Source of the DNA: Catajapyx aquilonaris | Lineage: Eukaryota | Direction: 5' to 3' | DNA length: 64,000 nt | NCBI GenBank assembly: GCA_000934665.2 | Contig: JYFJ02000077.1 | Span: 1-64,000, forward strand | In this document: positions 20,128 to 62,741 of the stretch, piece by piece | Numbering within the stretch: position 1 is the stretch's first letter | Layout: each line of letters opens with the position of its first letter | Made by a program: the position numbers and the translations under genes | Notes under the pieces: model-generated | The model's database searches: none | The model's input: only the letters and a program-made list of their open reading frames with translations | What the model was told of the DNA's origin: nothing

Positions 20128-23100
20128 ATGACACAATACCAGGTGACCCCGACGTCCCAGGACGCCATTCTTGCCGAAGACCACAAGAATGGAGCTACAA
20201 ATGGGTATGTCCAAGTACCTGAAGGAGACCCGCATGCAGTGCAGTGTCGGGTGTACAAGAAGAGATGGATCGTCTTGGTTCTCTTCGTGTGCTACTCCAT
20301 GTCCAACGCCTTCCAGTGGATACAGTACGCCATCATCAACCACATCATCGTCAAGTATTACGGCGTGGAACCCACGACTGTCGACTGGCTTTCCATGATC
20401 TACATGCTCACCTACATTCCTCTCATATTTCCCGCCGCCTGGCTGCTAGAGAAGAAGGTGAGTTCTTGGCGACCTGTAGCTGTTCATTATAGGGCTTATG
20501 TGGGTTGGGATATTGATTTGATCTGATAGCTTGCACAGTGAAGCAAACATCATGCGGTGGAATGTGTCCACGCCTGTCACTTCAAAGTCAGGGCGGTCTG
20601 CACTGTTGCATTTCTCTGTAATCGCACTGAAACCGCAACTGCGCGGGTCGAAGTGGTTGAGAAACAATGCAATGTGACAAAATGCGAATGAAATGGCAAA
20701 CGAAAAGGTATGCAACAAAATTTTGGAAAATTCGCGCTATAAAATCAAATCCAGATGTCCCAAGATATAATCGCTTTATGGAATATGTGGCTGATTATTT
20801 TTAATGCCATTAATGTGGAATAATAACGGGATATAAACGCAGGTCCCTGGAGCACATTTTGCGGTGCCGGTACTTCATTTGCATCACACAATGCACACGA
20901 TTTGTTTGCCTACTGTAGTTTAGAGTTAGGAGGCAGGTGTACGTGAGTCCGCTGGCCTATTTAATAGTCTCCGTAGTCCGTAGGATACTAAAACATTGCT
21001 TTGACGTCACCAGGACTTTCACTATTCATTCACCCTCAAAAGAAGCTCACAATCAGCTTATCTAATGCATTACTCTAGTGACGGAGTCATGGACAGATTA
21101 TACAACAGCAACAACCAACAACAATAATTTCCCCGGAAAGTCATACAGATTTGCTAGTTTACTATAGTCCGATAGTTCGACTTATAGGAATCAAGTTGTC
21201 GCTCATTGCCGGAGTCTATTCCTTGTAGTACAGTACCTGTCAAACCTTTCCTGTTAAAAGTACTCCTTACCCAACAAACCGGTTGGTAGCTGAGTGGCTT
21301 GTGCCAATTTGCAATAACTTCCAACACGAACACCACCGTTGCCAGCATAAACCCCATAACCAGCAGAATAAAGGGCCCCTCAAGTTGATTCAAGTACCGT
21401 ATGGCACCCCGTACATGCAAACCTTTCTGAAGTTCCTCGTCGGTCACGTTTTTCATTGACGCACGGACCCCTATGGAGAGCGCGTCCTCGAAGCAAGCCT
21501 CATCTTCCTTTTGATTAAACCCGAAAGCCACGTAATTTAGCACAAATTGGTGAACCTCTTCAAAGTGTAGATCGTCTCGATTCATAGAAATGGCCAGGTA
21601 CAGCGGTGGAAGGTCACTTCCGACCAACTGGTGCTTTGACCTCCCCCGCCAGTCGGTGAAATTCAGGTAGCTGTAATACATCAACCTCTCGTCAATGGAC
21701 ATGCAGGCGTAGTTTGGAGTGGTCAGAGCTCGAGCCAAGCACGAAACCAGATCAGGGTTTAGGCGTAAGGTTGTCGACATTGCTGAATACTGCGGGAATG
21801 GAGACCTCTCTAGAAGCTGGCTGAATATTTTGTGCTCTACTTTTTCCACGCCGAAATCATATCCGAGATTGATCAGTTCGTTCAGCGAGTCGATTCCGCT
21901 CGTGTCAGGCACAATCATGACTTGGGTCAGTTTGGAGCTGTACATGGTGCTGGACACCAAGCAGAAGATGAACCAAGATGCGAAGAATAAGCGAGGGATT
22001 CCGTGGTCGGCATGCTGCGGCAAATTGGTGCTCTGGGTGAACATGTACGGCAGCAAGTACTGGGACAGTACGGTCACATATGAGGCGCGATAGATCTTGT
22101 CCGAACGTCGTTGGTGGATCCAGACCAGCACAGAAGCTGCTGCCAGCAGAAAGATAAGGAGGAACCACACTAGGAGTGTGTAGGGTTTGAGGACCACTGT
22201 CCAGGAGAATCTTCCTTCAGGTGCTGCCACGGCAAATTTGGCCGAGGCGATTACGTACGGCTGGGTGAAGTCCAGTTTGGATATTTGTATTTGGTGATTC
22301 ATTGTCATTAGTGGTTCAACAGTATCGTTCAGAGGGTATATCGGTATGATCACAGGGGTAAAATTGAGCTTTTGGGCCAATGTAGAGTGCAAGTCCACGG
22401 GGTTTCGGATGTACACCGGTCTCAGGTGGAAGTTGACGGGCCAAGGAGGGAACAAGTACGGGAGGTGTGACGGTATGGGGACAGCGGTTCCATTGCCTTC
22501 GTTGCAGTACGGACACCACGAATACGCCCTGTCTCCAAGTCCTAGTTTGAACCTGAACTTTTTCACACTCCTGTGACCCAAAAGTTGCTGGACGTCGCCT
22601 GTAGTTATAAAGACGTAAAACTGCCTGGATATCCTTCCAAGATAATACTCACGGAGCCTCTTCACCACAGGTCGGAGTGTGTCCACATCACAAAACACAA
22701 AGTTCACTCTGCATACGTGACTAGCCTGGGCCACAGGGAATGAGAGAGAAAACCCGTTTTTACCAGACACTCTCAGAACTTGAATGGGATTTATGAGCAG
22801 TCCACTCCAAAAATATATGGACGGTTCAAATCGCGAGTCCGTAATAAACAGCAGCGTGCAGTTCCTGCTAAACGTGTCAGTAACGTTACGAATAAAGGTC
22901 AAAAAGTTAGGTTGGTCAACAGGGCGCAGAAAAATTTGCGAGTACACGAGTGCTGGTAATATCAAGCAAAGGAACGATGGAACTGTTTTTATCGCCATGT
23001 CCGTGTGTCACTAATGGCATCTAGCAGCTCCTTATATACCACCCAGAAAAGTGTGCCATATTTTTAAAGTATGTCGAAGCTCAAATACGGGGCCATGGAT

Positions 23101-26100
23101 TATTGTACCAATGTTATTTTCTGCCAACTGTTGAAAGCAGTCTTAATGCACCGAGGTGTCGCCAAGTTTAGAGATGTTATTGTTTTCAATTGTACAGTTC
23201 CCTTGAGAACTGAAGCGTATTGTGCGTCAATCAAAAAGGTGTCCTACATGCGCCGCGTTTTAAATGACGGTATGTTTGAACGTACAGCACTTCAATATTT
23301 TGATGACGTACACAATGCAGTTCAAGGTTAATGAAGTGTTTGTTTAAAGAGATACGTGTCGGATCAACATTATTCATAATGCTATTACAACCAGTCCATT
23401 GTCGCGATATGATTATTGTTTCCTATATTGACCACACTGGCAGCGTATATATGAAGCTACATTTCGTTCGAGGATAAAATAGATGCATACAGTGTCAAAA
23501 ACTGACAATGCGCGCACCAACCATGACTATGCAGGAGATACCTTTCTATTGAAAAACTAATATCCGGCTTCCCTTTGCCAATGAGGCTGAGAGGATTCAT
23601 CATTTTACAGAGGAAGTGCAATGACATGATTTAATTTAAGGTTCTAACCAAGGCCTTTGCCATAATACAGTTCGCAGAATTCCTCCAATATTTCTTCCTA
23701 ATTCAAGGCACTTATTATCTTTTCAGGGCCTTCGAATCGCTGTTCTGATCGGATCGTTTGGAACCTGTCTGGGATCGTGGATAAAGGTATTCTCCGTGGG
23801 CCCTGACCTCTTTTACGTCACCTTTGCCGGACAAACGATAGTGGCCGTCTCCCAAGTGTTCATCCTGGGAATACCCCCTCGTTTGGCTGCAGTCTGGTTT
23901 GGCCCAGGTCAAGTGTCGTCTGCCTGTGCCATTGGAGTTTTCGGAAACCAGGTAAACACACGTGGGGATGATTCAGTTGTTTATCTCTGATCCTTGGAAC
24001 ATACCGGAGCCTTTGTTGATCAACTGATATAAGCGTCCTTATTATTTCAAGGACCTACACCTGAATATGTAGTTCAGGGTGCAAAGTTCAAACTGCTAAC
24101 TACCACTTTATCCGCCTAATCTGACAAGTGTCATATAGAAATCGAAGTACAGTTTACATCACGGGGAAGTGGTAAGAATTACGCAACTGCGGAGAGTAGG
24201 GCGTGTGTAAGATGCTAATGGAATAAATTGAACCCTTGAATACCGGGAGGATGTGACTGACAAGTAATTTCCTGTGCGTCCATTAGAACTGATTTGGGAC
24301 GTCGGGCAATTATTTGCGACACCACCACTTGACATTTGACTGATTCTCTGTCTGCAGCTGGGAATTGCTATAGGATGCTACTTGCCAACTATTCTCGTCA
24401 ATAACCACGAGAATCTAAGCGACATTGGCAGCGACCTCAGCATCATGTTTTACGGAGTAGCAGCTGTCACAACCGTTATTTTCATTCTCATAATTTTTGG
24501 TGAGTAAAACTTCACTGTGCACTGTTTGTCACAAAGAAATTTCAACCAAAATTATCCTGGATGTATGCAACTATCAGCACTCGATCATATTTTCTCTCAG
24601 CGGTTTCTACACTGTAGAGTGCTGATGGTTGCATAGCGTCAGGATAGATTTTGGCGAATTTTTCTTTTGACAGGTAGTATACTACATGATCAACATTTAT
24701 AATTATGTAGGTTAATGAAGTTGTTTTTCTAAAATTACTAGCAGTGAACTTATATTTTTTCAGTGTTCAAAGATTCTCCTCCTGTGCCCCCGAGTCTGGC
24801 CCGAGCCGCAGTTCTTTCTGCATTAGAACCTGAAAGCTACTTGAACTCAATTCGGAAATTAGTTTGCTACGTTCCATATGGTCTACTTCTCACTACTTAC
24901 GGCATGAATGCTGGAGTCTTTTATGCTGTGTCTACTCTTCTCAACCAGGTTGTGCTGCCTCATTTCCCTGTAAGTCAATAGGAATTGCGAAATCTTCATG
25001 GAGTTTCTCATCTGATGTTCTATTGCACGTGAATAACTCTTTGGTTTTAGGGACATGATGCCGACATTGGAAGAATAGGACTGTGCATGGTTTTGAGTGG
25101 AATGGCCGGTTCCGTTGTTGCTGGGCTGTGGTTGGACAAGACCCACATGTTTAAGTAAGTAGTGATAACTATATTATATAAAATAAATACAACCTGTGAA
25201 TTGAAATATAGAAGCGAATGTCACAGTGATTTTTGTACAGCAGTAGTTGTGACTATCTTTAAAATGCCTCGTTATCTTTGTTTAACACCATGAAGTACCG
25301 GTACTCACCTTTAGAATGTATATTATCTGGGTTTATGAATTTGGCTGCATTTCAATGACAACTACGTTTGCAATATTTTTGACCTTTGCTTGATAATTTC
25401 TACTGGTGTAGAATAGCTATTGTTTTGTAATGATATCGTAATGTAGCCTATACAGTATGCTGCAATACTGTACGCGTTTTTCAATGCATTTGACGTGAAA
25501 TACCCGCATCATTACGCATTAACGATATTAACGCTGTCTCGTCAGATTGTAATGCAGTACGTACCATTGCACTAGTGCAGTTTTGCTGGATGATCTGCAA
25601 ATTCCTTCACACTATGCACATTAAGTGGTTATGCAATTAATAAATATTTTAAACAATGAATTTAATAAAAAGTTTGCATAGCAATCAGTTGCAAGAACCC
25701 AGCCTTGCAAGTGACGGCCATTCATATTCTTGAATTATGTATACGCCATAAACTATATTGCAGTACATCGCAGCTTGATGGAGTTACCACATTGTCTCAT
25801 GGCACTGTATTTATCTCAGGTCAACTACAGTTGGGATCTACTGCTTCTCCTTCTTGGGAATGTTGGCCTACACATTCAGCGTGTCATACGGCGGCATCGA
25901 GCTGGTCTACTTCATGGCTATTCTTCTTGGGTACGTGTGAATGACGTGCAGGCAAATTGATATGCAAACTGCGCGTCACAAATTAATGAGCCTAGCAATA
26001 TAATTACTGATGCATTCATTACCACTAATTGATCGCAGGTTCTTCATGACCGGCTATCTACCGGTCGGGTTTGAATACGCAGCTGAAATTACGTACCCAG

Positions 26101-26354
26101 AGCCCGAGGGTACTTCTTCGGGCCTTCTGAACGCTTCAGCTCAAGTCTTTGGCATCTTGCTGACAATGGGCACTGGATGGCTGCTGAGCACTTTTAACGA
26201 CATTACTGCCAACCTGACTTTGGCTAGCGTTCTGCTGGCTGGGTCTCTTGTCACTCTTCTCATCAAGACAGAGCTAAAGAGACAAAAGGCACAAACCCAA
26301 GGGACCACACCTGAGGATGAAGCTCAGGCCAAAGTAATGGTACCCAAGGTTTGA
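20128..26354 (+). CDS. FLVCR: FLVCR-family (SLC49) MFS transporter, paralog A (canonical choline/ethanolamine transporter-like). Exons 20128-20457, 23727-23951, 24358-24499, 24764-24969, 25051-25154, 25820-25930, 26039-26354
   Basis: Family motifs [58 protein letters not shown] and [39 protein letters not shown] introns keep the frame. Confidence 0.93.
21154..22998 (-). CDS. Intronless divergent ionotropic receptor (IR, variant iGluR chemoreceptor family), nested antisense in an FLVCR-A intron
   Basis: 614-aa ORF with a signal peptide, LAQKLNFT and LDFTQPY S1 motifs, KPYTLLVW at the M1 entry, RLFFASW...YSSKL pore-lining helix, IDSLNEL at the S2 start and [11 protein letters not shown]...VFVLE as the last TM. 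This is the typical IR architecture. Confidence 0.88.
   Translation of the reverse strand: MAIKTVPSFLCLILPALVYSQIFLRPVDQPNFLTFIRNVTDTFSRNCTLLFITDSRFEPSIYFWSGLLINPIQVLRVSGKNGFSLSFPVAQASHVCRVNFVFCDVDTLRPVVKRLREYYLGRISRQFYVFITTGDVQQLLGHRSVKKFRFKLGLGDRAYSWCPYCNEGNGTAVPIPSHLPYLFPPWPVNFHLRPVYIRNPVDLHSTLAQKLNFTPVIIPIYPLNDTVEPLMTMNHQIQISKLDFTQPYVIASAKFAVAAPEGRFSWTVVLKPYTLLVWFLLIFLLAAASVLVWIHQRRSDKIYRASYVTVLSQYLLPYMFTQSTNLPQHADHGIPRLFFASWFIFCLVSSTMYSSKLTQVMIVPDTSGIDSLNELINLGYDFGVEKVEHKIFSQLLERSPFPQYSAMSTTLRLNPDLVSCLARALTTPNYACMSIDERLMYYSYLNFTDWRGRSKHQLVGSDLPPLYLAISMNRDDLHFEEVHQFVLNYVAFGFNQKEDEACFEDALSIGVRASMKNVTDEELQKGLHVRGAIRYLNQLEGPFILLVMGFMLATVVFVLEVIANWHKPLSYQPVCWVRSTFNRKGLTGTVLQGIDSGNERQLDSYKSNYRTIVN
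23032..23038 (-). promoter_or_regulatory. TATA box of the nested IR gene
   Basis: Minus strand reads GGTATATAAGGAGC ~35 bp upstream of the ATG at 22998. Confidence 0.55.
24527..24672. repeat. Long imperfect inverted repeat (fold-back element) in an FLVCR-A intron
   Basis: TGTCACAAAGAAATTTCAACCAAAATTATCCTGGATGTATGCAACTATCAGCACTC pairs with GAGTGCTGATGGTTGCATAGCGTCAGGATAGATTTTGGCGAATTTTTCTTTTGACA. Confidence 0.8.
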
Positions 26355-31943: not shown

Positions 31944-34618
31944 ATGTCCACTGCTCTGCACAATGGTATGGCAATGAATAGCAATGAGAAATCTGCACAA
32001 AACGACATCAACATCGTGTAATGACCTGTACGCTACATTTATGATCATATTCCAGGTGGCTCATTAGCTGAAGCAAATGGAGCCAAGGCGGTTTCAAACT
32101 CTCAAGCGTGCTCTCAAGTCTCAATCAATTCCTGCAGTGCCCAGGATGCGACTGAATTCAAGGTGTACAAAAGGAGGTGGGTTATGTTGGCCCTGTTTTG
32201 CATGACATCAGTGGCGAATGCCTTTCATTGGGTACAATATGCCATCATCGTGGGAGTCATTACAAAGTATTATAACGTGTCACCTTTCACTGTCGATTGG
32301 CTCTCCATGATTTACATGCTGACATACATTGTCTTCCTCATCCCAGGAGAAATGCTGCAGAAAAAGGTGCGAAAGCGTAATTTTTTAAAGCTGACTTTTT
32401 GACATTCGAATTTTTAAATTTCAGGGATTGAGACTGATTGTACTTTTGGCCAGTATTGGAACCACTCTAGGCGCATGGATCAAAGTGGGTTCGTTGGCGA
32501 CGGACCGGTTTTATGTCACGTTCATTGGACAGTCAGTGATTGCTGTGTCGCAGATATTCATTTTGGGGATTCCTCCGCGACTGGCAGCAGTGTGGTTTGG
32601 TCCTGATCAAATCTCAACAGCGTGTTCAATCGGTGTTTTTGGAAATCAGGTAAAAAAATTACACACACTGATTGCATTATCGGCTATTGTGATATGAGCA
32701 CCAATTTCAAACATTTAAATAAATTATGCTTAAGTATTAGTTCGTATACGGTGGACCAAGTAAGGAATACGTAATATATAACGAGTTACGCTTTTAACCC
32801 CAAACACCTAATGTTTTCAAAACATTTTTTTACCCGTGGCGATTTCCATGAAGAAGTAAGTGCTCAAGGACTGCGGCCGTCCACTTGTTTGTCATATGAT
32901 AAAATTATCGGTGCGTAATGATGTCATTCACGGTCACCCACCTCCTATGTAGCATTTGAATCCGTCACAGACATGACCATGGATATGCCAGTAAACATTG
33001 TGCTTAGAATAGGACCCTGACCAGCCAGTGCAATGATAAAAACTTGAAATAATTACCAGTGTGCAAAAAAGTGCCAATGTTTAGTAAGGAGTGCTCACGT
33101 CCTATGCAACGTATTACAGGAAGTACAGTATGTAGGCTTTCCTCATTTATTAAAAATTTTCAATCTGCAAAAGGTATACTCAAACAGCTCTAAAATCATT
33201 GTCTTTTTTACAGTTTGGAATCGCAGCAGGATTCCTGATCCCACCTTTGATAGTGGCAGACGACACCAGCACACCTGATATTGAAAACGGGCTGTCCATT
33301 ATGTTTTATTCCGTTGCTGGTTTCAACACTTTCCTGTCACTGCTGGTGATATGTTTCTTCCGAAATGAACCACCGACGCCTCCAAGTCCAGCCAGAGCTG
33401 CGGCCATTGAAGAAAATGTTCCTATCAAGCAGTCTCTCCTTAACCTCGCCACAAACAGATCCTATGTCATTTTACTCATCACCTATGGCCTCAACGTGGG
33501 CGTCTTTTATGCTGTGTCAACTCTTCTGAGTCAGCTTGTCCATCCACACTTTCCAGTAGGTTAAGTTCGTAATGTTGCAGTGTGCTAATCACAGCTTTAC
33601 TCAACTCGCGATCCACCATTGATTCAAGAGGTATTAATCACAGTCACAAAAATTATTGCTGGTCGATAAAAAATAATGTTATCATTCCAATATGAACAAA
33701 TGGTATGATACAATATTACCGGCAGATAGACCAGTGATTGGAAAAAGTTGAGAATAGTTGCTTTGCTTCATATGTCTAACACTTTGTTATTCAATTTTTC
33801 CAGCACAATGACAAAGATATTGGAGTTATCGGCTTGTGTATAGTTTTATGTGGAATGGTCGGATCAGTAGTGTGTGGTGTTTGGCTAGACAAGACACGCA
33901 AATATAGGTAAGTGGGAGTCAAAATTATGTCTCTTTGAAATAGATAATACTTTACACAATACAGAAAATTCACATCACACCTCTACGGATTCACTGTGTA
34001 GCATACAGTACATTATTTATGAAACACATGCAGCACAGATTTGCTTATTTAGCTAATGGAATGCTAATTCCAGCAATGTTGTGGTAAACCAATTTAAATA
34101 ATGAATCATATTAATATTACAGGCAAACCATTTTGGCTGTGTACATATTGTCATTCCTGGGAATGATTGCATTCGCTTTAACTCTCCTAGTTCCGCACAT
34201 TGCCGTGGTGTACGTAACAGCCTCTCTATTAGGGTAAGTTTGTCTTCATTTCTTGACATAACTTTCCAATCCTACGTACAATTTCTCTCATACAATTACG
34301 GTAACAATTTCCAGATTTTTCATGACTGGTTACCTTCCGCTGGGCTTTGAATTTGCCTCGGAAATAACCTACCCGGAACCTGAAAGCACATCGTCTGGAC
34401 TTCTCAACGTGTCAGCGAACCTGTTCGGCATAATATTTACCACCGCCGGAGGTCAAATTCTGGAACACTTTGGTGACCTGGCAACCAACATGGCTTTGTC
34501 TGGCTCCCTGTTTGTGGGATCTGTCTTGACAGCCTTTATCAAAGGTGACCTGAGGAGACAAGAGGCGCAGAGAGGTGTCACTAATGCACCTTCAGTTCAA
34601 GTTCTGGCTACTCCTTAG
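31944..34618 (+). CDS. FLVCR: FLVCR-family transporter, paralog B. Exons 31944-31965 (tentative), 32056-32366, 32425-32649, 33214-33555, 33804-33907, 34123-34233, 34315-34618
   Basis: [50 protein letters not shown] and [29 protein letters not shown], with an intact spliced frame. Confidence 0.9.
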
Positions 34619-37063: not shown

Positions 37064-40000
37064 TTGATGTGATATGCTGTAAGTAAGTACGAAGCATATT
37101 TTCGGTATCAGTAATATTTCACAATAAATTATTATGCAAAGATAAGGTAATACAGTATAGTAAAACTGGAAAATAACTATAATGCAATTGATACCGGTAC
37201 ATTAATTATTACAATAAACGAAGTAGGTATTTAGGTATTTTAAAGGGCGACACGGTGGCCGAGTGGTTAGCGCCGCAGCCTTCCACCTCTAAGGTCCCGA
37301 GTTCGATCCCCGGGTCGGACGGAGGATACTTATGTGGATAGAGTTTCGATGGGTTCTCTCCGTGTTCGCGTGGGTTTTCTCGGGGTTCTCCCGTTTCCTC
37401 CCACTATCAAAATCCATCACATTACAGGCAAATGATTAAAGTCGGGTATTCAAAAGATGATCCCCTAAGAGGCCCAAGGGGCATATCACGGGGTATCCAT
37501 TATTAATGTATTTAGGTATTTTACGTATGTTGTATGTTGTTTATGAGGCATTTTTTTCATTATTTTGCGACAGTAGACAATAACTTACCTGTTCACAGGG
37601 GACCACTGCATGACAACTAACAAGAACCACCACCAGCAGCAGATAAAAAGAGCTCACAACTTCTACGAGCGACTTTAGTCTAATTTCGTAATTATGAATA
37701 TGTGCTTCTTAATTATGCCGCTACACAGGTTCGCGTATTAATAAATAACAGTCTACACCGGACCTCCCCTTTCGACCAATGCATACTATACCGACAGGCA
37801 GCTAAATTAGTAACGTTTTGGAGTTGACAGTACACTTATCCAAGGATTTAACAAGGTGATAGCATGAAAACTACTCTACCTATCACAGAAGTGCGCTTAG
37901 CAATGTAAACGGAATCACGTGTTAAAGTCACGAATAAACAAGATTGTTGTACTTCAATATCGGTGTAATCGCGAGCAATATCAAGTAAGTGTTGCAGAAG
38001 CTGACAGAGAAATAAGGGGAATGGAGGTAAAAAGAGGCAGAGGAAATATGCGAAAGTGCACAGACAAAAATGGAAAGGAAGAGAATGTAGGAATATTTGA
38101 ATGGGACTCTGCAGCAGGTCTGTATCAGAAAAGTAATTATCCTCCTGAGACCCCTGGTACAGTATACTGTACCTTTGTTTTTTCCAGCGCCTTCTGACTA
38201 ACTCAAACGCGTAAAAAAACAAAAACAAAGGTACAGTATACTGTACTCCGGGTCTCAGGAGGTTATAGAACTTTACAGACATAAGGCATTCCACGATTTC
38301 CATGCATTAATCGGTTGATGCAGGCGTGACAGAAAAATACTAAAAGTAATTACTGCAGTGAAAGTATCTGAATTGGTGTCTCTATGCCACATACACTCAC
38401 CAAAGTTTCTCAATATTTCAGAAGTCACAGATGTCACCAGCATCAGTTCCACGACACCTTCCCCCAATTTGTCCATTGATTCTGATAGCCATGAAAGTCC
38501 AGTGGAATACAAAGTGTACAAGAGGCGATGGTTAATGCTTTTCTTATTTTCGGTTACGTCTGGAGCTAATGCATTTCCAGGGATAGCATTCTCAATTGTT
38601 GTTGACACTGTCACAGAGTTTTACGATGTCTCACATTTGTCCGTGGACTGGCTCTCAATGATTTACATGCTGGTATACATACTGTTCCTAGTTCCTGGAG
38701 AACTGCTTCAGAAAAAGGTATGTTGGCATCGTGGTTCATCACATTATAACAGAAGCAAATTTCGAATTTTACTCTATACATCCTATTCTTGCCAAACGGG
38801 TCTTAGAAGCGTGTATATACCGCATGATAATGTGCTCTTTTATTCTAGGGACTCAGGCTTATTGTGCTTTTAGCAAGTTTAGGCACAACTGCAGGTGCAT
38901 GGATCAGAATTGGTTCGTTGGCACCTAACAGGTTTTATGTCAACTTTATTGGCCAGAGCTTCATTGCTCTGTCACAAATATTTGTTTTGGCCATACCCCC
39001 TCGCCTGGCTGCCGTTTGGTTTGGCCCAAAGCAAGTGTCTACAGCTTGTTCAATAGGTGTCTTCGGTAACCAGGTAGACTCTGAGACATTTTTTTATTGC
39101 TGCAGATTGTGGAACTTTCTCCTCACTCGAGGTAATTGTTTTTCTAGCTTGGAGTGGCCGTTGCATTCCTGATTCCGCCTCTGATAGTGCCAAGCGACAC
39201 CCCACCATCCGAGGTTCAAACTAAGCTGTCTATTCTCCTATATTCATTCGCCGTATTCAATACCATACTCTCTCTTCTGGTGATATTTTGTTTCCAAAAT
39301 GAGCCACCCACACCCCCGAGCCAGGCCAGGGCTGCAGCCATGGAAGAAGATGCCATTTCACTCAAGCAATCAATCATTAACTTATTCAAAAACCGCTCTT
39401 ATGTTCTTTTATTTTTCACGTACGGAGTGAACGCAGGAATTTTCTACTCAATTTCGACTCTTCTGGGACAGCTCATTCTTCCTCATTTTCCGGTAAGATG
39501 TGACTTATGCAACTACCACTAACGTCCGAACCATCAGAGGCTTCAGATATAGTAGACTACTTGTAGTTACTCTAAACTTATTGTTAGTAATGATGGATTC
39601 TGACTTATTCTGGTTTTGTGGAATTAATACATAAATTAAATTAATACCGATTATAATAGTTCTGCTAACGGTGGACCATTAGTTCATTTCATAAAGGAGG
39701 TAAATTTATTGTTACAGCATAATGATCGTGACGCAGGTATAATAGGACTTCTCATGGTTTTATTCGGAATGGCTGGTTCGGTCCTCTGTGGTATTTGGCT
39801 CGATAGGACCCGTAAATACAAGTAAGTACACAATATTTATAATGGTAAAGTCGGTCAATTTTTCTCAATGTCAATTTCGAGTCACGGGAGACATAATATA
39901 TGAGACGGCAGGTGGCCCTTGCATGTTACACACTGTAATGCAGCCAATTTTTTTGATGAAAATCTGCTTGAGTGCTGGCGCCACCTAGTACCGCCGAGTT

Positions 40001-40549
40001 TATTTGGTGTTTAAAGTAATTCGAGAATCAACATTTACTTTTCAGGTTAACCATGCTGATCGTTTACATATTTTCATTTCTGGGTATGATTGCTTTTGCA
40101 CTCACACTATTTATTCCGCACATTTCTGTGGTTTACGTAACGGCCTGCATACTTGGGTACGTGCTAAAGTACTAGTATACACCACATTTTGCCGGTGACG
40201 CCCACACATTAAAGGCAGCTAATGTATATTTCTTGTTTGCAGATTTTTTATGACTGGTTACTTTCCACTGGCTATGGAACTCGCCTCCGAAATCACGTAC
40301 CCTGAACCAGAGAGCACGTCCTCTGGACTTCTAAACGTGTGCTCCAACTTCTGCGGAATTGTATTTACCTTTATTGCTAGTCAACTGCTAGCGCACTTGC
40401 CCAAGCACACCGGAGACCTCGCTGTCAACATGTCCTTTGCTGGTGCGCTCTTCCTGGGAGTTGTTCTGAGTGCCTTCATTAAGAGTGATCTGAAAAGACA
40501 AAATATGGAGGAATGTAGTCCTAATCAGCCCAAATCTATTCAAAATTAA
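36388..40549 (+). CDS. FLVCR: FLVCR-family transporter, paralog C. Exons 36388-36400 (tentative), 38422-38717, 38849-39073, 39148-39492, 39718-39821, 40046-40156, 40243-40549
   Basis: [44 protein letters not shown] and [22 protein letters not shown]. The first exon ATG ACT GTG AAA G|GTAGGC is phase-compatible with the acceptor at 38421 and conserved in D. An alternative start exon is 38048-38132. Confidence 0.88.
36660..37063 (+). mobile_element. tRNA-derived SINE with (TAA)n/(TTA)n tail
   Basis: A-box-like TGGTGCTGCGG and B-box GGTTCGACCCC, followed by a simple-repeat tail. It is absent from the duplicate unit, which reads ATAATTATG|TTGATGTGATATG at ~42532-42553. Confidence 0.8.
37243..37507 (+). 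mobile_element. tRNA-derived SINE with V-domain-like core and 16-bp TSD
   Basis: A box TGGCCGAGTGG, B box GAGTTCGATCC and core GTTCTCTCCGTGTTCGCGTGGGTTTTCTCGGGGTTCTCCCGTTTCCTCCCAC. The TSD GTATTTAGGTATTTTA lies at 37227-37242 and 37508-37523, and the empty site is in the duplicate at ~42700. Confidence 0.9.
38141..38262. mobile_element. 122-bp MITE, piggyBac-like ends with TTAT TSD
   Basis: TTAT|CCTCCTGAGACCC..GTACAGTATACTGTACCTTTGTTTTT...AAAAACAAAGGTACAGTATACTGTAC..GGGTCTCAGGAGG|TTAT. Absent at the equivalent position of the duplicate (~43035). Confidence 0.8.
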
Positions 40550-41955: not shown

Positions 41956-44900
41956 ATGGCTGCGAAAGGTAAGCCCCTTTATAACCCCTGAGACGCTTGG
42001 TAATGCAAAATCTCGTGCAAGGTATTTTTCTGTCATGTTTATAGCAATGGGTGTATACATTTAGGGTGTCTCGTATTTAACAGCATTAAATGTTACCCAT
42101 TTCGACCAGTCAATATTTTCAACTTTTCTGTCATTAGAACTATATGCCGTGTCGCAGTGGCGGATCCAGCACAAGTTTCCGGGGGGGGGTTCTTGGCTTC
42201 AGGGATATTACAGTACCGGTACTGTATCTCATATGGTTTTTTTTTACTTAGCTTAAATACACCAAAATTCTCTCGCAGGCTAGCACAGACAGTGATTTAC
42301 TCATGGGCACCATGCCACATGTCCCCAGTCGAGTGAATGGAGCATTACATTACATGCAAAACACTTTCCCGACAATTACCTTTGCTTTCCCCGGTTCCCA
42401 TTTTGCCGATTTTTTGGTTTTCTCGCCCCCCCCNCCGGTTCCGCCACTGAAGTGTCGGCATGCATTTCGTATAGGGCAGTAGGAAACAATGAATGTCCAT
42501 GTAAACTAGCGTGTGAATAAGGTGCACTATAATAATTATGTTGATGTGATATGCTGTCTGACGAGTAAGTACGAAGCATATTTTTGGTGCCAGTAATAAT
42601 AAGTGACGATAGAGTATTATCCCAAGATAAGGTAATATAGTCAAACCGGAAAATAACTATAATGCAATGTTGATGATACATTAATTACAATAGACGAAGC
42701 AGGTATTTTACGTATGTTGGATGCTGTATCGAATGTTTATCAGGCTTTTTTTTTTCTTCTTCTGCGACAGTAGCCAATAACTTACCAGTTCACCTGGGTA
42801 TAGCAATGTAAACCGAATCACGTGTTAAAGTCACGAATAAACAAGATTGTTGCACTTCAATATCGGTGTAATCGCTAGCATTATCAAGTAAGTGTTGTAG
42901 AAGGTGAAAGAGAAATAAGGGGAATGGAGGCCTCAGAGGAAATATGCGAAAGTGCACAGACGAAAATGTAAAGGACGAGAATGTAGGAATATTGGAATGG
43001 GACTCTGCAGCAGGCCCGTATCAGAAAAGTAATCATCAAACTTTATCGACATAAATAAGGCATTCCAAGAATTACATGCATTAATACGTTGATGCAAACG
43101 TGACAAGAAAATACTAAAAATAATTACTGCAGTGAAAGTGTCAGAATTTTAGTGTCTCTGTGCCATATACACTCACCAGCGTTTCTTAATATTTCAGAAG
43201 TCACAGATGTCACCAGCATCAGTTCCACGACACCTTCGCCCAATTTGTCCACTGATTCTGATAGCCATGAAAGTCCAGTGGAATACAAAGTGTACAAGAG
43301 GCGATGGTTAATGCTTTTCCTATTCTCGGTTACGTCTGCAGCTAATGCAATTCCAGGGATAACATTCTCAATTGTTGTTGACACTGTCACAGAGTTTTAC
43401 GATGTCTCACCTTTGTCCGTGGACTGGCTCTCTATGATTTACATGCTGGTATACATACTGTTCCTAGTTCCTGGAGAACTGCTTCAGAAAAAGGTATGTT
43501 CACATCGTGGCACGTCACATAATAACAGAAGCACTATTTCGCATTTTACTCTGCAGCCCATTCTTGCAAAAACAAACTTTCCTGCACTATGATTTTACTC
43601 CGGGGGAGTTTACAATGTGATAAATCATTTTAAGCTGTATACCACCCTGCCTATTCGCTTGTCCTGGCACCATGTGATTTCTACCTCTTCCCTAAAATGA
43701 AATTTGGGTAGAAAATGAGGCATTTTGACTCCACTAGAGAGATCTAAGCAAAATCCCAGCAGGTGTTGAACACACTACTGTTCGCCAATTTTTGGGGGGT
43801 GCTTCCAAAAATGGGAAATTCGTTGGAATCGTTGTATACGTGCCCAAAGTTTGAAGGTGGCAGTAGAAATTAGGACTTACAGTAAATATTAATGTTTTTA
43901 TGAACAAATTCTCGGAAATTTTTGGTAGCACCCCCCCCCCTCCCCGCCACCTGTGCGTAATTTTGGTCCATCTCTATACCACACAAGTGACATCGATAGA
44001 GCTTCAAAACACAGTAAAGTGCATACAGTATATGTAACTGTTTTCGTTTTCAACATGGGTCGAAAATGGGGCCTGGGAGGGGTATCGTTCCTCTTTTGTT
44101 TCTCTCCCCTTCTCGTGATTTTTGCGTCATCTGCATACCCACACAAATGTATACATAGACGGAGCTTCAAAACTAGGTAAAAGTCATCATTGGACCCTCT
44201 CCAGTTTTCGAATAAAACAGACAAGAAGTTTTAACCCTTTTTGCAGGGGGTCCTATTATACTGTTCAACCCCTGTATGTGCTCTTTTATTCTAGGGACTC
44301 AGGCTTATTGTGCTTCTAGCAAGTTTAGGCACAACTATAGGTGCCTGGATCAGAATAGGTTCGTTGGCACCTAACAGGTTTTATGTCAACTTTATTGGCC
44401 AGAGCTTTATTGCTCTGGCATCAATCTTTGTTTTGGCCATACCCCCTCGCCTGGCTGCCGTTTGGTTTGGCCCAAAGCAAGTGTCTACAGCATGTTCAAT
44501 AGGCGTCTTCGGTAACCAGGTAGACACTGAGACATTTCTTATTGCTGCAGATTGTGGAACTTTCTACTGACTCGAGATAATTGTTTTTCTAGCTTGGAGT
44601 GGCCGTTGCATTCCTGATTCCGCCTCTGATAGTGCCAAGCGACACCCCGCCATCCAAGGTTCAAACTAAGCTGTCTATTCTCCTATACTCATTCGCCATA
44701 TTCAGTACCATATTCACTCTTCTGGTGATATTTTGTTTCCAAAATGAGCCACCTACACCCCCCAGCCAGGCCAGGGCTGCAGCCATGGAAGAAGATGCCA
44801 TTTCACTCAAGCAATCAATCATTAACTTATTCAAAAATCGTTCCTATGTTCTTTTGTTTTTCGCGTACGGAGTGAACGCAGGAATTTTCTACTCACTTAC

Positions 44901-45975
44901 GACTCTTCTGGGACAGTTAATTCTTCCTCATTTTCCGGTAAGATGCGACGTATGCAACTATCACCAATGTCCTCTTGAGATATACTGTCTTGTATAGTTA
45001 TCCGAAACTTACGAATAATGGATTCTGACGTTTTGTGAAATTATTACAAAAATTAAATTAATAACATACTCTTAAAATCGTTCTGATGAAGGTAGATCAT
45101 TCGTTCATTTCATAAATGATGTGAATTTACTGTTGCAGCATAATGATCGTGACGCAGGTATAATAGGACTCATCATGGTTTTATTCGGAATGGCTGGTTC
45201 GGTCCTCTGTGGTATTTGGCTCGATAGGACCCGCAAATACAAGTAAGTACACAATATTCATAATAATGGTAAAGTCAGCATTTTTCTCAATGTCAATTTC
45301 GAGTCGCGAAAGACAAATGCGACGGCAGGTGGCTCTTGCATGTTACACACTGTAATGCAGCCTATTTTTTGAAGAAAACCTGCTTGAGTGCTGGCGCCAC
45401 CTAGTACTGTCGAGTTCATTTGATTCTTTAAAAAAGTAATTTAAGAACTGATCAACATTTACTTTTCAGGTTAACCATGCTGATCGTTTACATATTTTCA
45501 TTTCTGGGGACGATTGCTTTTGGACTCACACTATTTATTCCGCACATTTCTGTGGTTTACGTAACGTCCTGCATACTTGGGTACGTGCTAAAGTACTAGT
45601 ATACACCACATTTTGCCGGTGACTCCCACATATATTAAAGGCAGCTAATGTATATTTCTTGCTTTCAGATTTTTTATGACTGGTTACTTTCCACTGGCTA
45701 TGGAACTCTCCTCCGAAATCACGTACCCTGAACCAGAGAGCACGTCCTCTGGCCTGATAAACGTGTGCTCAAACTTCCTCGGACTAGTGTTTACCTTTAT
45801 TGCCAGCCAACTGCTCGCGCACTTGCCCAAGCACACTGGAGACCTCGCCGTCAACATGTTCTTTGCTGGTGCGCTCTTCCTGGGAGTTGTTCTGAGTGTC
45901 TTCATTAAGAGTGATCTGAAAAGACAAAATATGGAGGAATGTAGTCCTAATCAGCCCAAATCTATTCAAAATTAG
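41956..45975 (+). CDS. FLVCR: FLVCR-family transporter, paralog D (recent duplicate of C). Exons 41956-41968 (tentative), 43198-43493, 44295-44519, 44593-44937, 45139-45242, 45470-45580, 45669-45975
   Basis: Same exon lengths as C and an intact frame. The first exon is ATG GCT GCG AAA G|GTAAGC, downstream of an Inr-like TCAGTT near 41894. Confidence 0.88.
42155..42449. mobile_element. hAT-like MITE containing an assembly N at 42434
   Basis: TIRs CAGTGGCGGA...TCCGCCACTG with poly-G/poly-C subtermini, flanked by CCGTGTCG and AAGTGTCG (6/8). Absent from unit 1 (~36557). Confidence 0.75.
43570..44272. other. ~700-bp sequence unique to the D intron relative to C, probably a transposon remnant
   Basis: The equivalent intron is 131 bp in C (38718-38848) and 801 bp in D (43494-44294). 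The intron ends align but the middle does not. Confidence 0.55.
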
Positions 45976-56729: not shown

Positions 56730-59700
56730 ATGGGTCCGGAAGTGCGGGACATTCGAGGAAGTCGGTCCGTGATGCAAGAAGAGGTCATCACCAGCAGCGG
56801 AGCCGTCGTCTCGGGACAACCCTGGTTTATAAAGGTCCAGCCTCTAGATGGTGAAAGCCACGCAGCAGCCGCTCAGTCTGGTGGCAGCTCTGGGTCCGAC
56901 CAGGTGCAACAGCAGCAGACCACTGACCAGCATCATCATAAAGCCATGTCTCCTCAGACTGGGACCATCAACGGTGGGGCCATGGTGGTGGTGCCCGAGA
57001 CAGAGGTCAAGATTTCGGGGGATGCCGCCCAGCAGGATGTGGTCAAGAAGGATGGTGCAGGGGATGCTGGAGAAGAATTCAAGGTGTACCGGAGGAGGTG
57101 GTTCATGCTCGCCCTATTCTCGGCGTGCTCCATGTGCAATTCCTTCCAGTGGATTCAGTACTCGATCATTACTGATAGTGTCACCAGGTTTTATGGGGTT
57201 GAGCCGGTGGATGTGGACTGGCTCTCCATGATTTATATGATCGCGTACGTGCCGCTGATCTTCCCTGCCACTTTCGTTTTGGATAAGAAGGTGAGTTGAT
57301 CCGCAGGGAACTGGTTCATCAGATAATAGGAAATGTCACTTGTGTAGCACGTGCTCGCGATGACGAGTACGACGTCAAACTGCATCATTTCAAACAGCAT
57401 TTGACCAATTGTGTATATTTAATTTACATTTTTTATAAGACTGTTATTAAAATCATGGGCAGAATTAATGCAATATGTCTCAGCGCAAAGCAACAGGAGT
57501 GTAGGAGTGTGAAACCTTGAACCTACAGTATAGTCTGCATAAGTGCTGTTAAAAAGACAGGCGTACTGTGCAATAAACCAGGAGGTGACTCTGGCCACAG
57601 AGCTTATCGTGAGCTTCAGGAATTGTGGGTGAGCTGACAATGTCACTTTATCATCTTTGAACACATATAGCGTGCTGTTTGAATTATCGGTATGTGTAGC
57701 CAGTGTAGGTATGCGTGTGTAAAATGCAGCATAACGTCACAGGGAATACCTGAATGCGTAGTGTATACTTTATGTGGCGTGGAAAATAATGAGTTTGCTT
57801 TTGTTTTGAGAATTATTAGCTGTAATAAGACGTAAAGAGATTCCACGGTTAGCATCCAGTGATTCATCTCCAGTTTTTCTGCAGATTTAAATTGTGCATC
57901 AAGTTCATCACTTACGTTGAATGCAATGCGTGTTTCTCAACATAAATGGAAATCAAATCGAGCACTGTCAAGTTCATGTTCGGCAAATATTACAGGTCAC
58001 GTCGCAATAAAACTTGATACACTATCAGTGATTTTAAAACAACGCTTTTCTTCAGTCGTCTTTTGTCCGTTCCTCCTAGCCTATACGTTAGGAAATATTC
58101 AAGTGCAATAGGAAATGTACAATTTATCAGCAGGCATTGCACATCTGGCTGTACCAACGCCAACAACTGATCCCTATTGTTATGACAGCGCGTGTTGTAA
58201 AGAACACTTGCTGCAGCCTACGTCATACGGCTATTTATCTTATCGCCCAGTAATTTTCACAGGTGTTTGTGTTGACATTCTCTAGTGCAAGCACCTGTGT
58301 GTCACATTGCAGGGTGTGTTGCTCAGTAGTTTAAGACCACTGATACCAATTGTCTTATCACTTGAAGGTTACGGAGTCAACAAGAATGTGCTAAATGATG
58401 TTATCTCAATCTGTCTTTTTAGGGCCTACGATGGTCTGTCCTGCTGGGCGTCTGCGGAACCGCCCTAGGAGGCTGGATCAAAGTGTTTTCAGTATCACCG
58501 GACCGGTTCTTTGTCACTTTCATCGGACAAACAGTGTCGGCGATAGCACAGATCTTCACTTTCGGAATCCCACCTCGATTGGCAGCCGTTTGGTTTGGAC
58601 CAGGCCAGGTCTCCACAGCATGTTCCATTGGAGTCTTTGGAAATCAGGTTAGTTAAGTTATATAACATGTGAAGGTTGGACTCAAAAAGCGGCCCCTCAG
58701 TCACATCGAGCATGACAGCCAGGGGAGGGGGACCCTTTTTTGTCTTTTGCGGTTACGAAATGTCGTACCGTTCAGTTGAAGTGTTACATTAACCACGCAA
58801 CCCACTTGTTGGTGAACTGATTGAGGATGAAGTTTTATATGCGCAAGCGTCAACAACATGATTTATTCCCCTCAAGGTCCATGGCATTGATGTTTCTGCG
58901 GCACTTCCTCTAACCAGTCCAACCCCACTTCAAGTTAAGCTCCTTTTATTGCCATGATAGATGTGAGAACTTTTTAAAAAATATATATAAAAAAGGAAAG
59001 GCATTGAACGAAGACATTCCCCTCCCTAGACACGACATAGAAGGCTGGCCAGCATATTGTCCTCTGACCTCCAAATTTTTGTCACTTTCCAGCTTGGACT
59101 GGCCTTAGGATTTCTACTTCCACCTCTGCTGATAGGCAACCAGCATGACGACTTGGCTGACATTGCCTACGACTTCAAGATGATGTTCTACGGTTCCAGT
59201 GTGGTTCCCACGGTTCTCTTCGTTCTAGTCATTTTCTGTAAGTCTTTTTCGGGTTGATCGGCACGACCTTGGTCCCGGCCTGAGCACGTGGCCGACCGTA
59301 TAACAATGAGACAGAAAAAAGAGTGGTGCAAAAGGTGCATAGACCACTTTCTGTTTCTAACCCTTTTTTCGGGCTGGTTGAGCTAGGTCACGGTTTAAAT
59401 CACGCAACTCCTTAGAAAGGGGGACAATTAAGTGGGAATTTCTAACTGTGAAGATAGTTATATAATAGAATGTTGATCTACACAGTTCAATGAGTGAGGT
59501 GAAGTTCAGACAGACAACTGACCTCCTTTCGCTTTCAAGAACCAGTAATCAACACGCTTGTCTGACATGTTGACAAACATGTAGTGATTTAACCTGTTTT
59601 AATTAGTCTTCCAGGAGGGACCCCCTGTACCTCCGAGCCCTTCGAGAGCCGCGGCCATCACGGCAGCGGAGAACAGCAGTTATTACCAATCGCTGAAGAA

Positions 59701-62700
59701 TGTCCTCACCAACAGCAACTTCATCCTCCTATTGTTTTCCTACTCGTTTTCGCTGGGTGTGATGAACACCCTGGTCACATTGTTGAATCAGCTCATCCTC
59801 AGCGAGTTTCCTGGGCATCAAGAGGACGCAGGAATGGCAGGGGTGGCCAACGTTCTCTGTGGACTTGTTGGAGCATCTCTTCTTGGCGTCTGGCTGGACA
59901 AAAGCCACAAGTTTAAGTGAGACGGGTTTATTACGTTGGTCAGTTGTATGGTATAGAATACTACATCTCTGGTTATAACCTGCATAATTTTAATTTCAAA
60001 CCTTTGGAAAGCTATAACACTGCAAGAATGAGATTAGTACATTCAGTCAAAATCGAGCCAACGAAAGGAAAAGGTCGCAACATTCCACACGCCATAAGAC
60101 CCATATACTACTTATCAAAGTCACATTCAGTATAGGGAAAGAAAAGGTCTAATTACCCCATGAGGTAACCTGTTGCTTATTTCTAACAATTCAGGCCCAC
60201 TATCGTGATAGTTACCTCCGCAGTCCACACTAGGACCTAGCATAAGCATACGTAGCATAATATTGTCATCTCTCCTACTCTTTGATTTGCAGTTGGTTTA
60301 TTAATTATTTATTAGATTAATTACGTTAAAAGCGGGCCTACTTAATTCTAAATGAAATCATATAGAGCCATTTTAAGTGCACTAAATTCGCATTTAAAAA
60401 CTACTTCATTTGCTTACATTTCATTGACCTGTTGTAACAAGTTGGTAACAAAATGGTAACATGTAACAATGTCATTTCAGAGAGACGTCTATCGTGGTGT
60501 ACATCCTCAACATCATCGGAATGCTGTCATTTACTTTCACTCTGTACTACAAAAGCCTGCCCATGGTCTACGTTGGTCTAATACTCTTAGGGTGAGTTGG
60601 TTACAAAAATGTGTGGCTGCTAATTGCGCTAATTACACAGCCAAAGGGCCTTTCAGGGACACTCGATGATTATTGTTTTGGGACACATATCGGGCACAGG
60701 CCGCGAATGGCTTCGTAATTGGGCACCTAAATTCTTTGAAAGTGTTGTTTTGGGGTTACCGGTGACTGGATTTTACTCTCGTTTTTCTCTCTCTCTAGCT
60801 CCTAGCTAGACATGGACGGTTGATTTTCCAGAGGTGCTTGTTGCGTGTCAGATATAATTAAGCTTAAGAAGTAGATGGAATCAGAATAGCAGTTTGTTAA
60901 AGTAACAGACCACTTGCGCAACCCGTGTCTCGTGTACTTGAAAGAATATGTCAAGTACCAGGAATAGTTCTGAGTTGTACTCTCATGCTGAATTTTCGAA
61001 CTAGACAATTTACTGTAGAAAGGGGATGTTGGGCAATGTGTCTTCGTGACTTCATTCCACAGACGTAAATGCATGTACACAATATTTCACAGCAAAATAT
61101 CATAGCGTGCGAGGCAAAAGGCACAAAGATACTGCGTTGTTGTTTTCAAGCACACAATCTGTCTGAGCATAACAAAAGGATGAGTCTGTCAGTCAAAAGT
61201 CAAAACATGATCCCGCAACAAATTTTTAATGAAGACATTGACTGGGTTGCGTCAGTACGATGTATATTACCGGCCTTCAGTACTCTACTAAAGCAGTTCG
61301 TAACTTTTGCAGTACGCAGCGAGCAATATACGGTAGATTTTAGTGAGAGTATAAATGACAGCCTCACATCATATTGTCACATGAGCCCGCAAGATGTCGT
61401 ACGACTCTTCTCTACGGCTAACTATACTTATCGCGAAGCATTATATTAGAACCACGGATTAGAACACTCAAGGTGATAATAACGTGGGTGCATTATACTG
61501 TTGCACGGCATGTTATACTTACTGTACTATACTGTACACCGCTTATTGCATAATTATTGTATAAGCCAGGGTTGGTTAATAGTTAATTATTAGGATTATT
61601 TGCTTCTGCTGCCAGTTAGACACTAATTTCGACGTCCAACTTGACATTCATCCATAAAATTGCATTATGCATTACTTACGTAATGATAGCGTGAATAGTG
61701 CTACATAGATGATTCCATGATGAAATCTTTTAAGAGTCATTAGTTTGATTTTCGCATGTAAACTGGAATGGTAGGTGGAGGAATTTTGTTCCCAGCCCGT
61801 CTTGGCCACTAGAGAATTTTTCACAATAAGTAACGAATTGAACAATGGTTCATGTATAGTAGCCTACAAGTATATAACATTGCGAAAAAATGCTCCGATT
61901 GTACTTCAGTATCCGTGTCAACGCACGGTCACACTCATAAGTACAGATAGCCATGCGAACTTTAGTGGCGCAAAGGTAAGTAGCCTGCAGAGGAGTCGGG
62001 GAAGTGTGCCGTGGCACAAAAAAAGGTGCCGGCCACAAAGGCACGGAATGCCATTTCCCAACGTCGATAACCGATATGAGGGTCAATGACAGTTGTTGTT
62101 CAATGTTGCAATGTGCCTGAAGGTAGACATGTCCCTCTCGCAAAACTTTGTTGTGCCATGTCTTATTATCTGCCCTTATACTCCACAACAAGCTCGCAAA
62201 ATGTCCTCTGACATACTTATTCCCTGACGCCTATGTCGCAAACTCACCATAGCCTTTCAACCCGTCTTTCTGCCAGAATCTGTATCTCAATTTATTGGCC
62301 TGCTTCCCAGTATGCTTCGACAACATTCCGTAACGCCATACTCAAAGGGTCGAGGGGGAAGTCATAATCATGTCAGTATCATAAATGCACACAAGCCGTA
62401 ATAAGCAGTACGTAAGTCCTATTAATTAATCTTACAGCCTGTTCATGTCGGCATATCTGACACTGGGATTCGAGTATGCCGCCGAACTGACCTACCCGGA
62501 ACCGGAAGGCACCACCGGAGGACTGCTAAACGCCTTCCTGTACCTATTCTCCGTGGTGTTCACCAGCTTAGGAGGCTACATCCTGAGAGCCAGAGGAAAC
62601 CTAGCTTCGAATCTCTTCTGCTGCGGGATCCTCCTGGTCGGTCTCCTGGCCACCGTCCTGATCCGACCGGACCTAAGACGACAGGCCGAGGTCAACAAGA

Positions 62701-62741
62701 AGGCCGCCGAGGCTGAGAAAGGCAAAGAGGAGAAGGTCTAA
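56730..62741 (+). CDS. FLVCR: FLVCR-family transporter, paralog E (most divergent in C-terminal half). Exons 56730(start uncertain)-57290, 58423-58647, 59093-59237, 59607-59916, 60481-60591, 62438-62741
   Basis: [48 protein letters not shown] and [22 protein letters not shown], with a long low-complexity N-terminus and an intact spliced frame. Confidence 0.9.

Follow-up and report, generated by a model that had tools for sequence, protein, structure and literature searches.

A definition of the choline pocket of the FLVCR transporters dates only from 2023-24. In human FLVCR1 the ammonium group of the substrate is held by W125 and Y349 through cation-π contacts and its hydroxyl group is bound by Q214 and Q471, with F348 lining the site (Ri et al., PMC11168923); further contributions come from Y153, M154 and N245 (Son et al., preprint, PMC10557757). 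According to the same preprint, uptake of both choline and ethanolamine falls to the knockout level with W125A and is strongly reduced with Y153A or Y349A; Q214A costs 94% of ethanolamine uptake but does not alter choline uptake, and the effects of N245A and Q471A are smaller (PMC10557757). A 2026 paper adds I226 on transmembrane helix (TM) 5 of FLVCR2 as a contact (PMC13160678), and the gate residues named for FLVCR2 include D124 on TM2, R200 on TM4b, E435 on TM11 and the extracellular Asn pair N110/N332 (PMC11168923). Drosophila melanogaster CG1358/HisT is reported to be a Na+-dependent, histamine-specific transporter of epithelial glia (PMC9604546); human FLVCR1 and FLVCR2 are reported to take up no histamine (PMC9604546; PMC13160678). 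In our survey the pocket is almost invariant across animals, yet a fly member with the same first shell carries histamine. Here we analyze a stretch of Catajapyx aquilonaris DNA (contig JYFJ02000077.1 of assembly GCA_000934665.2, positions 1 to 64,000; 'the window'), which is eukaryotic DNA of about 40% G+C. It carries five FLVCR (SLC49) genes, A to E, all on the plus strand and arranged head to tail at 20128..62741. Judged from its sequence, this array is real and well preserved, and three of the five copies (C, D and E) lack near-invariant residues that are required in the human protein.

Do all five genes belong to the FLVCR family? Translations of exons 1, 2 and 7 of A and of exon 3 of B match only FLVCR1 and FLVCR2 chains across all PDB sequences (five distinct sequences per search, E values from 4e-27 to 1e-18), and align to them ungapped across the motifs; the placement of C, D and E in the family comes from the five-way alignment and tblastn. 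The named homologs from the database searches are FLVCR- or flvcr2a-type proteins carrying PF07690. By homology, then, all five are SLC49/FLVCR1-2-like major-facilitator genes. A tblastn search with a shrimp FLVCR2-like protein (P0007, 485 amino acids [aa]) gave 28 high-scoring segment pairs, all on the plus strand and all within five clusters, and no further FLVCR match in the window outside these clusters at E ≤ 0.1. The motifs quoted in a first-pass annotation of this DNA were placed by a six-frame motif scan of the window and by spliced alignment, and every one was found, one set per gene. Each TM1 motif occurs once (see table), and the scaffold motifs ([24 protein letters not shown] and TYPEPE) occur five times each, one per gene, so that these are indeed kept in all five copies.

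The first-pass annotation had also matched motifs to human residues, and for W125, Q214, Y349 and Q471 the ungapped alignments to PDB chains bear it out. The W of NAFQW corresponds to FLVCR1 W125 (FLVCR2 W102), the YM of DWLSMIYM to Y153/M154, the Q of SQVF to Q214, the N of GVFGNQ to N245, the FY of GVFY to F348/Y349 (FLVCR2 F324/Y325) and the last Q of NASAQ to Q471. The check that it had proposed, whether the altered positions coincide with pocket residues, was run: W125, Q214, Y349 and Q471 are published choline/ethanolamine contacts (PMC11168923; PMC10557757).

We scored a first shell made up of W125, Y153, Q214, N245, Y349 and Q471 plus M154 and F348. Copy A is canonical at every pocket position and is the only copy to retain the whole first shell (8/8). 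B carries Q124H and Q471N (7/8). C carries Q124P, W125G, Q127A, Y128F, I249V, S469C, A470S and Q471N (6/8), and D has the changes of C together with F123I, S213A and Q214S (5/8). E carries I249L, F348M, Y349N, S469F, A470L and Q471Y (5/8). In the spliced alignment the TM4 strings read, from A to E, SQVF, SQIF, SQIF, ASIF and AQIF, and the TM7 strings GVFY, GVFY, GIFY, GIFY and GVMN; the replacement of GVFY by GIFY and the S213A change are not among the contacts reported in the portions of the two structural papers available to us (PMC11168923, PMC10557757). All five copies retain Y153, M154 and N245, and likewise the gate residues D124 (TM2 Asp), R200 (TM4b Arg) and E435 (TM11 Glu; FLVCR2 numbering). 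At the extracellular gate, the Asn pair (FLVCR2 N110/N332) has become H/N in A, G/S in B, D/G in both C and D, and D/N in E. The earlier claim that each paralog rewires a different motif is therefore too loose: Q471 is changed in all of B to E and the TM1 change is common to C and D.

How unusual are these changes? Among 191 full-length homologs from two database searches, position 125 is W in 187 and Y in one (unaligned in three), and never Gly; position 349 is Y in 188, L in one and Q in one (one unaligned); and position 471 is Q in 180, E in six and N in one (four unaligned). Position 214 is more variable, with Q in 163, T in 22, S in two, A in two, M in one and one unaligned. The 22 T residues belong to the teleost flvcr2a group, which is marked by Q124M, M154F/C and Q214T. 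A HMMER search with the TM1-TM2 exon of C against 1.84 billion representatives gave 636 matches at E ≤ 0.001; among the best 150 of these, 146 have W at the W125 position, two have Y and one has C, with one unaligned, and none has Gly there.

Since the first-shell losses of C, D and E include residues whose alanine mutants abolish or greatly cut transport in the human protein (PMC10557757), these copies lack the first shell expected of a choline/ethanolamine carrier, and on the human mutant data canonical transport of choline or ethanolamine is not expected of them. The reading that we favor, and hold to be somewhat likelier right than wrong, is that the locus comprises five functional SLC49 genes of which A keeps the ancestral pocket, and C, D and E transport a changed substrate or with changed selectivity. 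Copy A would retain the ancestral small-amine pocket, with aromatic W125/Y153/Y349 and polar Q214/N245/Q471, and most likely does the ancestral job, that is, uptake of choline/ethanolamine or, as in flies, of histamine. B would be a mild variant, probably still carrying a small hydroxy-amine. In C and D the capping Trp of TM1 has given way to Pro-Gly and the facing TM7b gate Asn to Gly, so that the outer site would open and loosen, suggesting a larger or differently shaped cavity; D in addition lacks Gln214, which FLVCR1 needs for ethanolamine. In E the Phe-Tyr pair of TM7 is lost and a Tyr (and a Phe) is gained on TM11. Because the new Tyr is at position 471, which touches the substrate in the human structures, the aromatic contact may be re-created from another helix.

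Might the labor instead be divided, with all five copies carrying choline/ethanolamine (or the substrate of A) and differing in tissue, stage, affinity or direction, and with neighboring residues compensating the pocket changes, as Q471Y might replace Y349 in E? We consider this improbable. The knockout-level uptake of both substrates in W125A and the greatly diminished uptake in Y349A (PMC10557757) speak against it, and C and D show no aromatic gain near position 125; conservation of W125 in 187 and of Y349 in 188 of the 191 homologs argues that both are hard to replace for this substrate. It does draw some support from the retention of Y153, M154 and N245 in five of five copies, from B, whose only first-shell change is at Q471, where the alanine mutant of FLVCR1 has a lesser effect (PMC10557757), and from E, which gains an aromatic residue at 471 near the lost Y349, both residues contacting choline in the structures (PMC11168923, PMC10557757).

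A more general difficulty comes from the fly. The Drosophila rows of our alignment are canonical at N121, Q124, W125, Q127, Y128, Q214, N245, Q246, F348, Y349, N467, S469, A470 and Q471, the exception being F123M, yet HisT is reported to carry histamine, so that identity of the first shell does not fix the substrate; the substrate even of A is consequently uncertain. We know of no sequence feature that separates histamine from choline carriers, and none was found in this comparison. One mantis-shrimp homolog is named 'histamine transporter' by its source. The proposal that A is the housekeeping transporter fits its being the most conservative copy (4 of 119 conserved columns changed, as against 10 to 23 in B to E; see below), but does not carry over to its substrate, since a canonical fly pocket carries histamine.

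Are the divergent copies maintained? No internal stop or frameshift was found in any of the five models, and all 26 of the 26 modeled introns are GT...AG. C and D arose by a recent tandem duplication, and the pair has a synonymous divergence (dS) of 0.107 and a nonsynonymous divergence (dN) of 0.029, giving dN/dS 0.27 (Nei-Gojobori). Their exons are 95.4% identical (1319/1383) without insertions or deletions (indels), and introns 2-5 are 88.1% identical (504/572), with indels. The dN/dS ratio and the greater conservation of exons than introns indicate that C and D are under purifying selection. For B and C dN/dS is about 0.13 by the same method, with dS nearly saturated; every pair that includes A or E shows silent-site saturation, with proteins still 44-55% identical. 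Pairwise protein identities are A-B 55%, A-C 47%, A-D 45%, A-E 49%, B-C 67%, B-D 63%, B-E 51%, C-D 94%, C-E 44% and D-E 44%. With intact frames, GT-AG introns, the selection signal and the retained Y153/M154/N245 and gate residues, the five copies appear to be functional as genes.

When the 26 amino-acid differences between C and D are polarized by B, 15 fall on D, one on C and 10 are ambiguous; the D-lineage changes include F123I, S213A and Q214S. We also considered whether C and D could be an assembly or haplotype artifact, and rejected this: the two units are tandem neighbors within a single sequence, their DNA differs by about 11%, and their first introns measure 131 and 801 nt, respectively. 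The 801-nt intron 1 of D (43494-44294), compared with 131 nt in C, indicates that about 670 nt were inserted into D after the duplication. C in turn has an insertion of about 125 bp at about 38145-38270, upstream of its main first exon, that is absent from D; with its long, near-perfect inverted ends it resembles a miniature inverted-repeat element.

As a control we turned to conserved alignment columns: 119 reach at least 90% conservation across the 191 homologs, 6 of them pocket positions. The numbers of these columns changed are 4 in A, 10 in B, 19 in C, 22 in D and 23 in E, and the changed pocket columns number one in B, two in C, two in D and three in E. Several points here weigh against a changed substrate. 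Pocket changes are not significantly enriched (Fisher p = 0.42 for B, 0.24 for C, 0.31 for D and 0.086 for E), and those of C, D and E sit on a general acceleration, which makes acceleration or relaxation a live alternative; D took 15 of the 16 polarizable C/D changes; without the putative mini-exons described below, the first in-frame Met of B, C and D sits inside TM1; and human alanine mutants need not predict the effect of W>G or Y>N in a co-evolved background. The first-pass claim that B to E have altered specificity is thus overstated: it leans on the human alanine mutants, and the enrichment in the pocket is not significant (p 0.086-0.42).

Taken further, the same observations could mean that C, D and E are relaxed or decaying, serve as receptors or 'transceptors', or are on the way to becoming pseudogenes, their pocket changes being part of a general loss of constraint. 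The altered extracellular Asn pair of B, C and D and the dependence of the B, C and D start codons on inferred exons would agree with this, as would the 19, 22 and 23 changed columns with no pocket enrichment and the share of D in the polarizable differences. We nevertheless rate it a poor bet, since frames and GT-AG introns have stayed intact despite divergence that saturates silent sites, the C-D comparison gives dN/dS 0.27 with indel-free exons better conserved than introns, and the scaffold motifs are kept throughout. The kind of change is also informative: where a column is at least 95% conserved, substitutions outside the pocket are for the most part conservative (I>V, K>R, G>A, L>F), as against W>G and Y>N within it, and it is by this quality that the pocket changes stand out.

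Returning to the favored reading of changed substrate or selectivity, a more specific and clearly more doubtful form of it is that the locus is a natural SLC49 panel with at least two new substrate-site designs, a Trp-less pocket in C/D and an 'aromatic-swap' pocket in E. In the first, the Pro-Gly of TM1 and the Gly at the TM7b gate may widen the site to admit a substrate that is bulkier or non-quaternary. In the second, the cation-π partner may have moved from TM7 (F348M, Y349N) to TM11 (Q471Y).

Gene models were built by choosing the GT/AG junctions that gave the highest similarity to three crustacean homologs (see table). The ATG of A and the stop of E are at the positions given in the first-pass annotation. 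Intron positions and phases are common among the copies, with the differences that the third intron of A is absent from B, C and D and its fourth from E. Gene E has additional in-frame ATGs at 56730 and 56772. The 5' ends of B, C and D are harder to model, as their first recognizable exons have no in-frame ATG upstream of TM1. For B there is a candidate 5' mini-exon of 22 nt, starting at ATG 31944, with a GTATGG donor and a 90-nt intron, which joins in phase 1 to 32056. For C and D a strict-donor scan for conserved upstream ATG exons gave only non-homologous candidates; inspection of the C/D alignment, with a GTAAT donor admitted, gave a candidate first exon of 85 nt from the ATG, whose open frame and donor are conserved between C and D and which joins in phase 1 to a TTTCAG acceptor common to both. 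These short 5' coding exons of B, C and D are plausible but putative. The description of the locus as five intact tandem paralogs is accordingly sound for the core frames, which have neither stops nor frameshifts, but less so for the start exons of B, C and D, which are only inferred.

Table. Coordinates (window numbering) of the gene models, their exons, the duplicated C and D units and the TM1 and TM11 motifs
Feature	Position	Strand	Description	Method
Gene A	20128..26354	+	7 coding exons, 477 aa, start ATG 20128	tblastn + GT-AG optimization
Gene A exons	20128-20457, 23727-23951, 24358-24499, 24764-24969, 25051-25154, 25820-25930, 26039-26354	+		
Gene B	31944..34618; core 32127-34618	+	6 exons in core; about 472 aa if inferred first exon is used	
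Gene B exons	inferred 31944-31965; then 32056-32366, 32425-32649, 33214-33555, 33804-33907, 34123-34233, 34315-34618	+		
Gene C	38048..40549; core 38409-40549	+	6 exons in core; about 490 aa if inferred first exon is used	
Gene C exons	inferred 38048-38132; then 38422-38717, 38849-39073, 39148-39492, 39718-39821, 40046-40156, 40243-40549	+		
Gene D	42944..45975; core 43203-45975	+	6 exons in core; about 490 aa if inferred first exon is used	
Gene D exons	inferred 42944-43028; then 43198-43493, 44295-44519, 44593-44937, 45139-45242, 45470-45580, 45669-45975	+		
Gene E	56946..62741	+	6 coding exons, 479 aa from ATG 56946	
Gene E exons	56946-57290, 58423-58647, 59093-59237, 59607-59916, 60481-60591, 62438-62741	+		
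C unit and D unit	35226-40617 (C) and 40807-46047 (D)	+	recent tandem duplication of about 5.4 kb	self-blastn, collinear blocks 78-91% identity
TM1 motif, A	20305-20328	+	NAFQWIQY	six-frame scan
TM1 motif, B	32217-32240	+	NAFHWVQY	six-frame scan
TM1 motif, C	38568-38591	+	NAFPGIAF	six-frame scan
TM1 motif, D	43344-43367	+	NAIPGITF	six-frame scan
TM1 motif, E	57138-57161	+	NSFQWIQY	six-frame scan
TM11 motif, A	26130		NASAQ	
TM11 motif, B	34406		NVSAN	
TM11 motif, C	40334		NVCSN	
TM11 motif, D	45760		NVCSN	
TM11 motif, E	62529		NAFLY	

When did the array arise? In a mixture-model tree of 43 rows the five window genes form one clade (ultrafast bootstrap 81, Shimodaira-Hasegawa-like approximate likelihood ratio test [SH-aLRT] 88), within which B(C,D) has 100/100, and together with barnacles, springtails, Daphnia and insects they make up a supported group (98/95) apart from the malacostracan sequences. 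They are not monophyletic in a free LG+G4 tree, nor in a quick tree of 68 rows, in which A goes with Collembola (82), and E, B/C/D, Daphnia and an insect FLVCR-like clade marked by Q124H and Q471E (described below) form an unresolved group (SH-aLRT 86). Approximately unbiased (AU) tests (LG+G4, quick tree) reject neither monophyly of the five genes (p = 0.24) nor a union of B/C/D with the insect clade (p = 0.20). The 'lineage-specific panel' of the first-pass annotation is therefore what the mixture-model tree recovers (81/88) but not what the quick and LG+G4 trees recover, with the AU tests rejecting neither; origin within the lineage is the better-supported reading, though a tentative one. 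On that reading serial local duplication would have built the array, the splits between A, E and B versus C/D being old and that between C and D recent.

The other history to be weighed is that the paralogs are ancient, B/C/D and perhaps E deriving from an old FLVCR duplicate of Pancrustacea, a relative of the insect Q124H/Q471E clade, and the array being an old linked cluster. B and the insect clade have Q124H and a changed Q471 in common, the quick tree sets A apart with Collembola, away from the group (SH-aLRT 86) that holds B/C/D, E, Daphnia and the insect clade, the AU test allows B/C/D to join that clade, and silent sites are saturated between A, B and E. The mixture-model tree conflicts with such an origin, joining the five window genes and placing the insect clade with other insect FLVCRs and Daphnia (91/91), as do the tandem arrangement of the five genes in one orientation and the lack of any homolog more than 55% identical to exon 3 of B or 57% identical to exon 1 of C. 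On balance we think an ancient origin unlikely, though it merits more weight than either of the functional alternatives discussed above.

These identity ceilings come from several searches. The HMMER search returned no match above 57% identity to exon 1 of C, and a word-based search with the first exon of C gave one weak match among 165 candidates. A profile search with B, C, D and E exons retrieved 146 proteins, none more than 55% identical to exon 3 of B. The closest homolog of A is a barnacle protein with 61% identity. The lack of a close ortholog of B to E may reflect only missing relatives in the database. It bears repeating that continued transport, a changed substrate and a within-lineage origin of the array are steps that we infer rather than demonstrate.

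A few other features of the window deserve mention. Its single N is at 42434, between C and D and outside all modeled exons. Two inverted-repeat pairs with arms of about 130-170 bp, 12030-12160 / 12425-12554 (78% identity) and 28856-29009 / 29420-29591 (74%), may be transposable-element ends. Within the 3.3-kb first intron of A, on the minus strand, lies an antisense stop-to-stop frame of 617 aa (21154-23007). It scores 29.5 bits against Pfam Lig_chan (curated cut-off 30.8), and its PDB matches include plant GLR3.4 (E = 6e-7) and GluN2B; a possible interpretation is a variant ionotropic receptor gene of the chemosensory type, without introns and nested in the transporter gene. A Pfam search of 23 other long open reading frames of the window found nothing except this sub-threshold Lig_chan match.

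What makes the locus useful is that it offers five linked, selectively maintained natural variants: a canonical A, a mild B, and C, D and E without residues needed in the human protein. A comparison might reveal the positions that determine the substrate, and also whether SLC49 carriers accept other small amines. If the new substrate-site designs are real, the substrate range of SLC49 exceeds choline, ethanolamine and histamine, and the five sequences are a ready-made specificity map. For annotation, the names 'choline/ethanolamine transporter' or 'histamine transporter' would probably be wrong if transferred by homology to copies such as C, D and E.

An arthropod expansion of FLVCR-like genes was already on record. 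In the velvet mite Dinothrombium tinctorium there is a published expansion of FLVCR-related major-facilitator genes (PMC6275457), with families of 21-47 members that are only about 25-30% identical to FLVCR1/2; the part of that paper available to us contains no pocket analysis. Our literature search found no paper on pocket-divergent arthropod FLVCR paralogs or on the firefly arrays described next; supplements were outside the search, and alignments that bear on this may exist in Figure S4 of the HisT paper and in the conservation figures published with the structures. Within the scope of that search, the altered-pocket array appears to be new.

Fireflies provide a second case of tandem FLVCR-like copies, here fused in annotation: Abscondita terminalis P0122 (1201 aa) contains three copies, and Aquatica leii P0123 (902 aa) and Lamprigera yunnana P0134 (1169 aa) two each. 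Like the window array they have pocket changes, at 214, 245, 348 and 349. Unlike B to E, they keep Q124-W125 and Q471 and change N245, and they nest within beetle and other insect sequences. As these cases indicate, FLVCR tandem arrays arise repeatedly. The insect clade mentioned above (Zootermopsis, Anabrus, Thrips and Halyomorpha; six of the 191 homologs) combines Q124H with Q471E, the same two positions as in B, but differs from B in having Glu rather than Asn at 471. The names given by its sources include 'uncharacterized MFS-type transporter C09D4.1' (MFS, major facilitator superfamily), and in the mixture-model tree it is a clade of its own (100/100) near insect FLVCRs.

Drosophila HisT (CG1358) belongs to the same FLVCR1/2-like clade and is likewise from an arthropod, and the Drosophila rows match A at the tabulated pocket positions apart from F123M; it differs in that the Drosophila rows group with other insects in both trees, with the window genes outside that group. 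The human choline/ethanolamine uniporters FLVCR1 (SLC49A1) and FLVCR2 (SLC49A2), represented by structures 8ubw, 8qcs, 8qcx, 8vzn and 9qu4, are the sole PDB matches of the window exons queried. The alignment of FLVCR1/2 to the window copies is collinear and ungapped through TM1, TM2, TM4, TM7 and TM11, and copy A shares with FLVCR1 all of W125, Y153, M154, Q214, N245, F348, Y349 and Q471.

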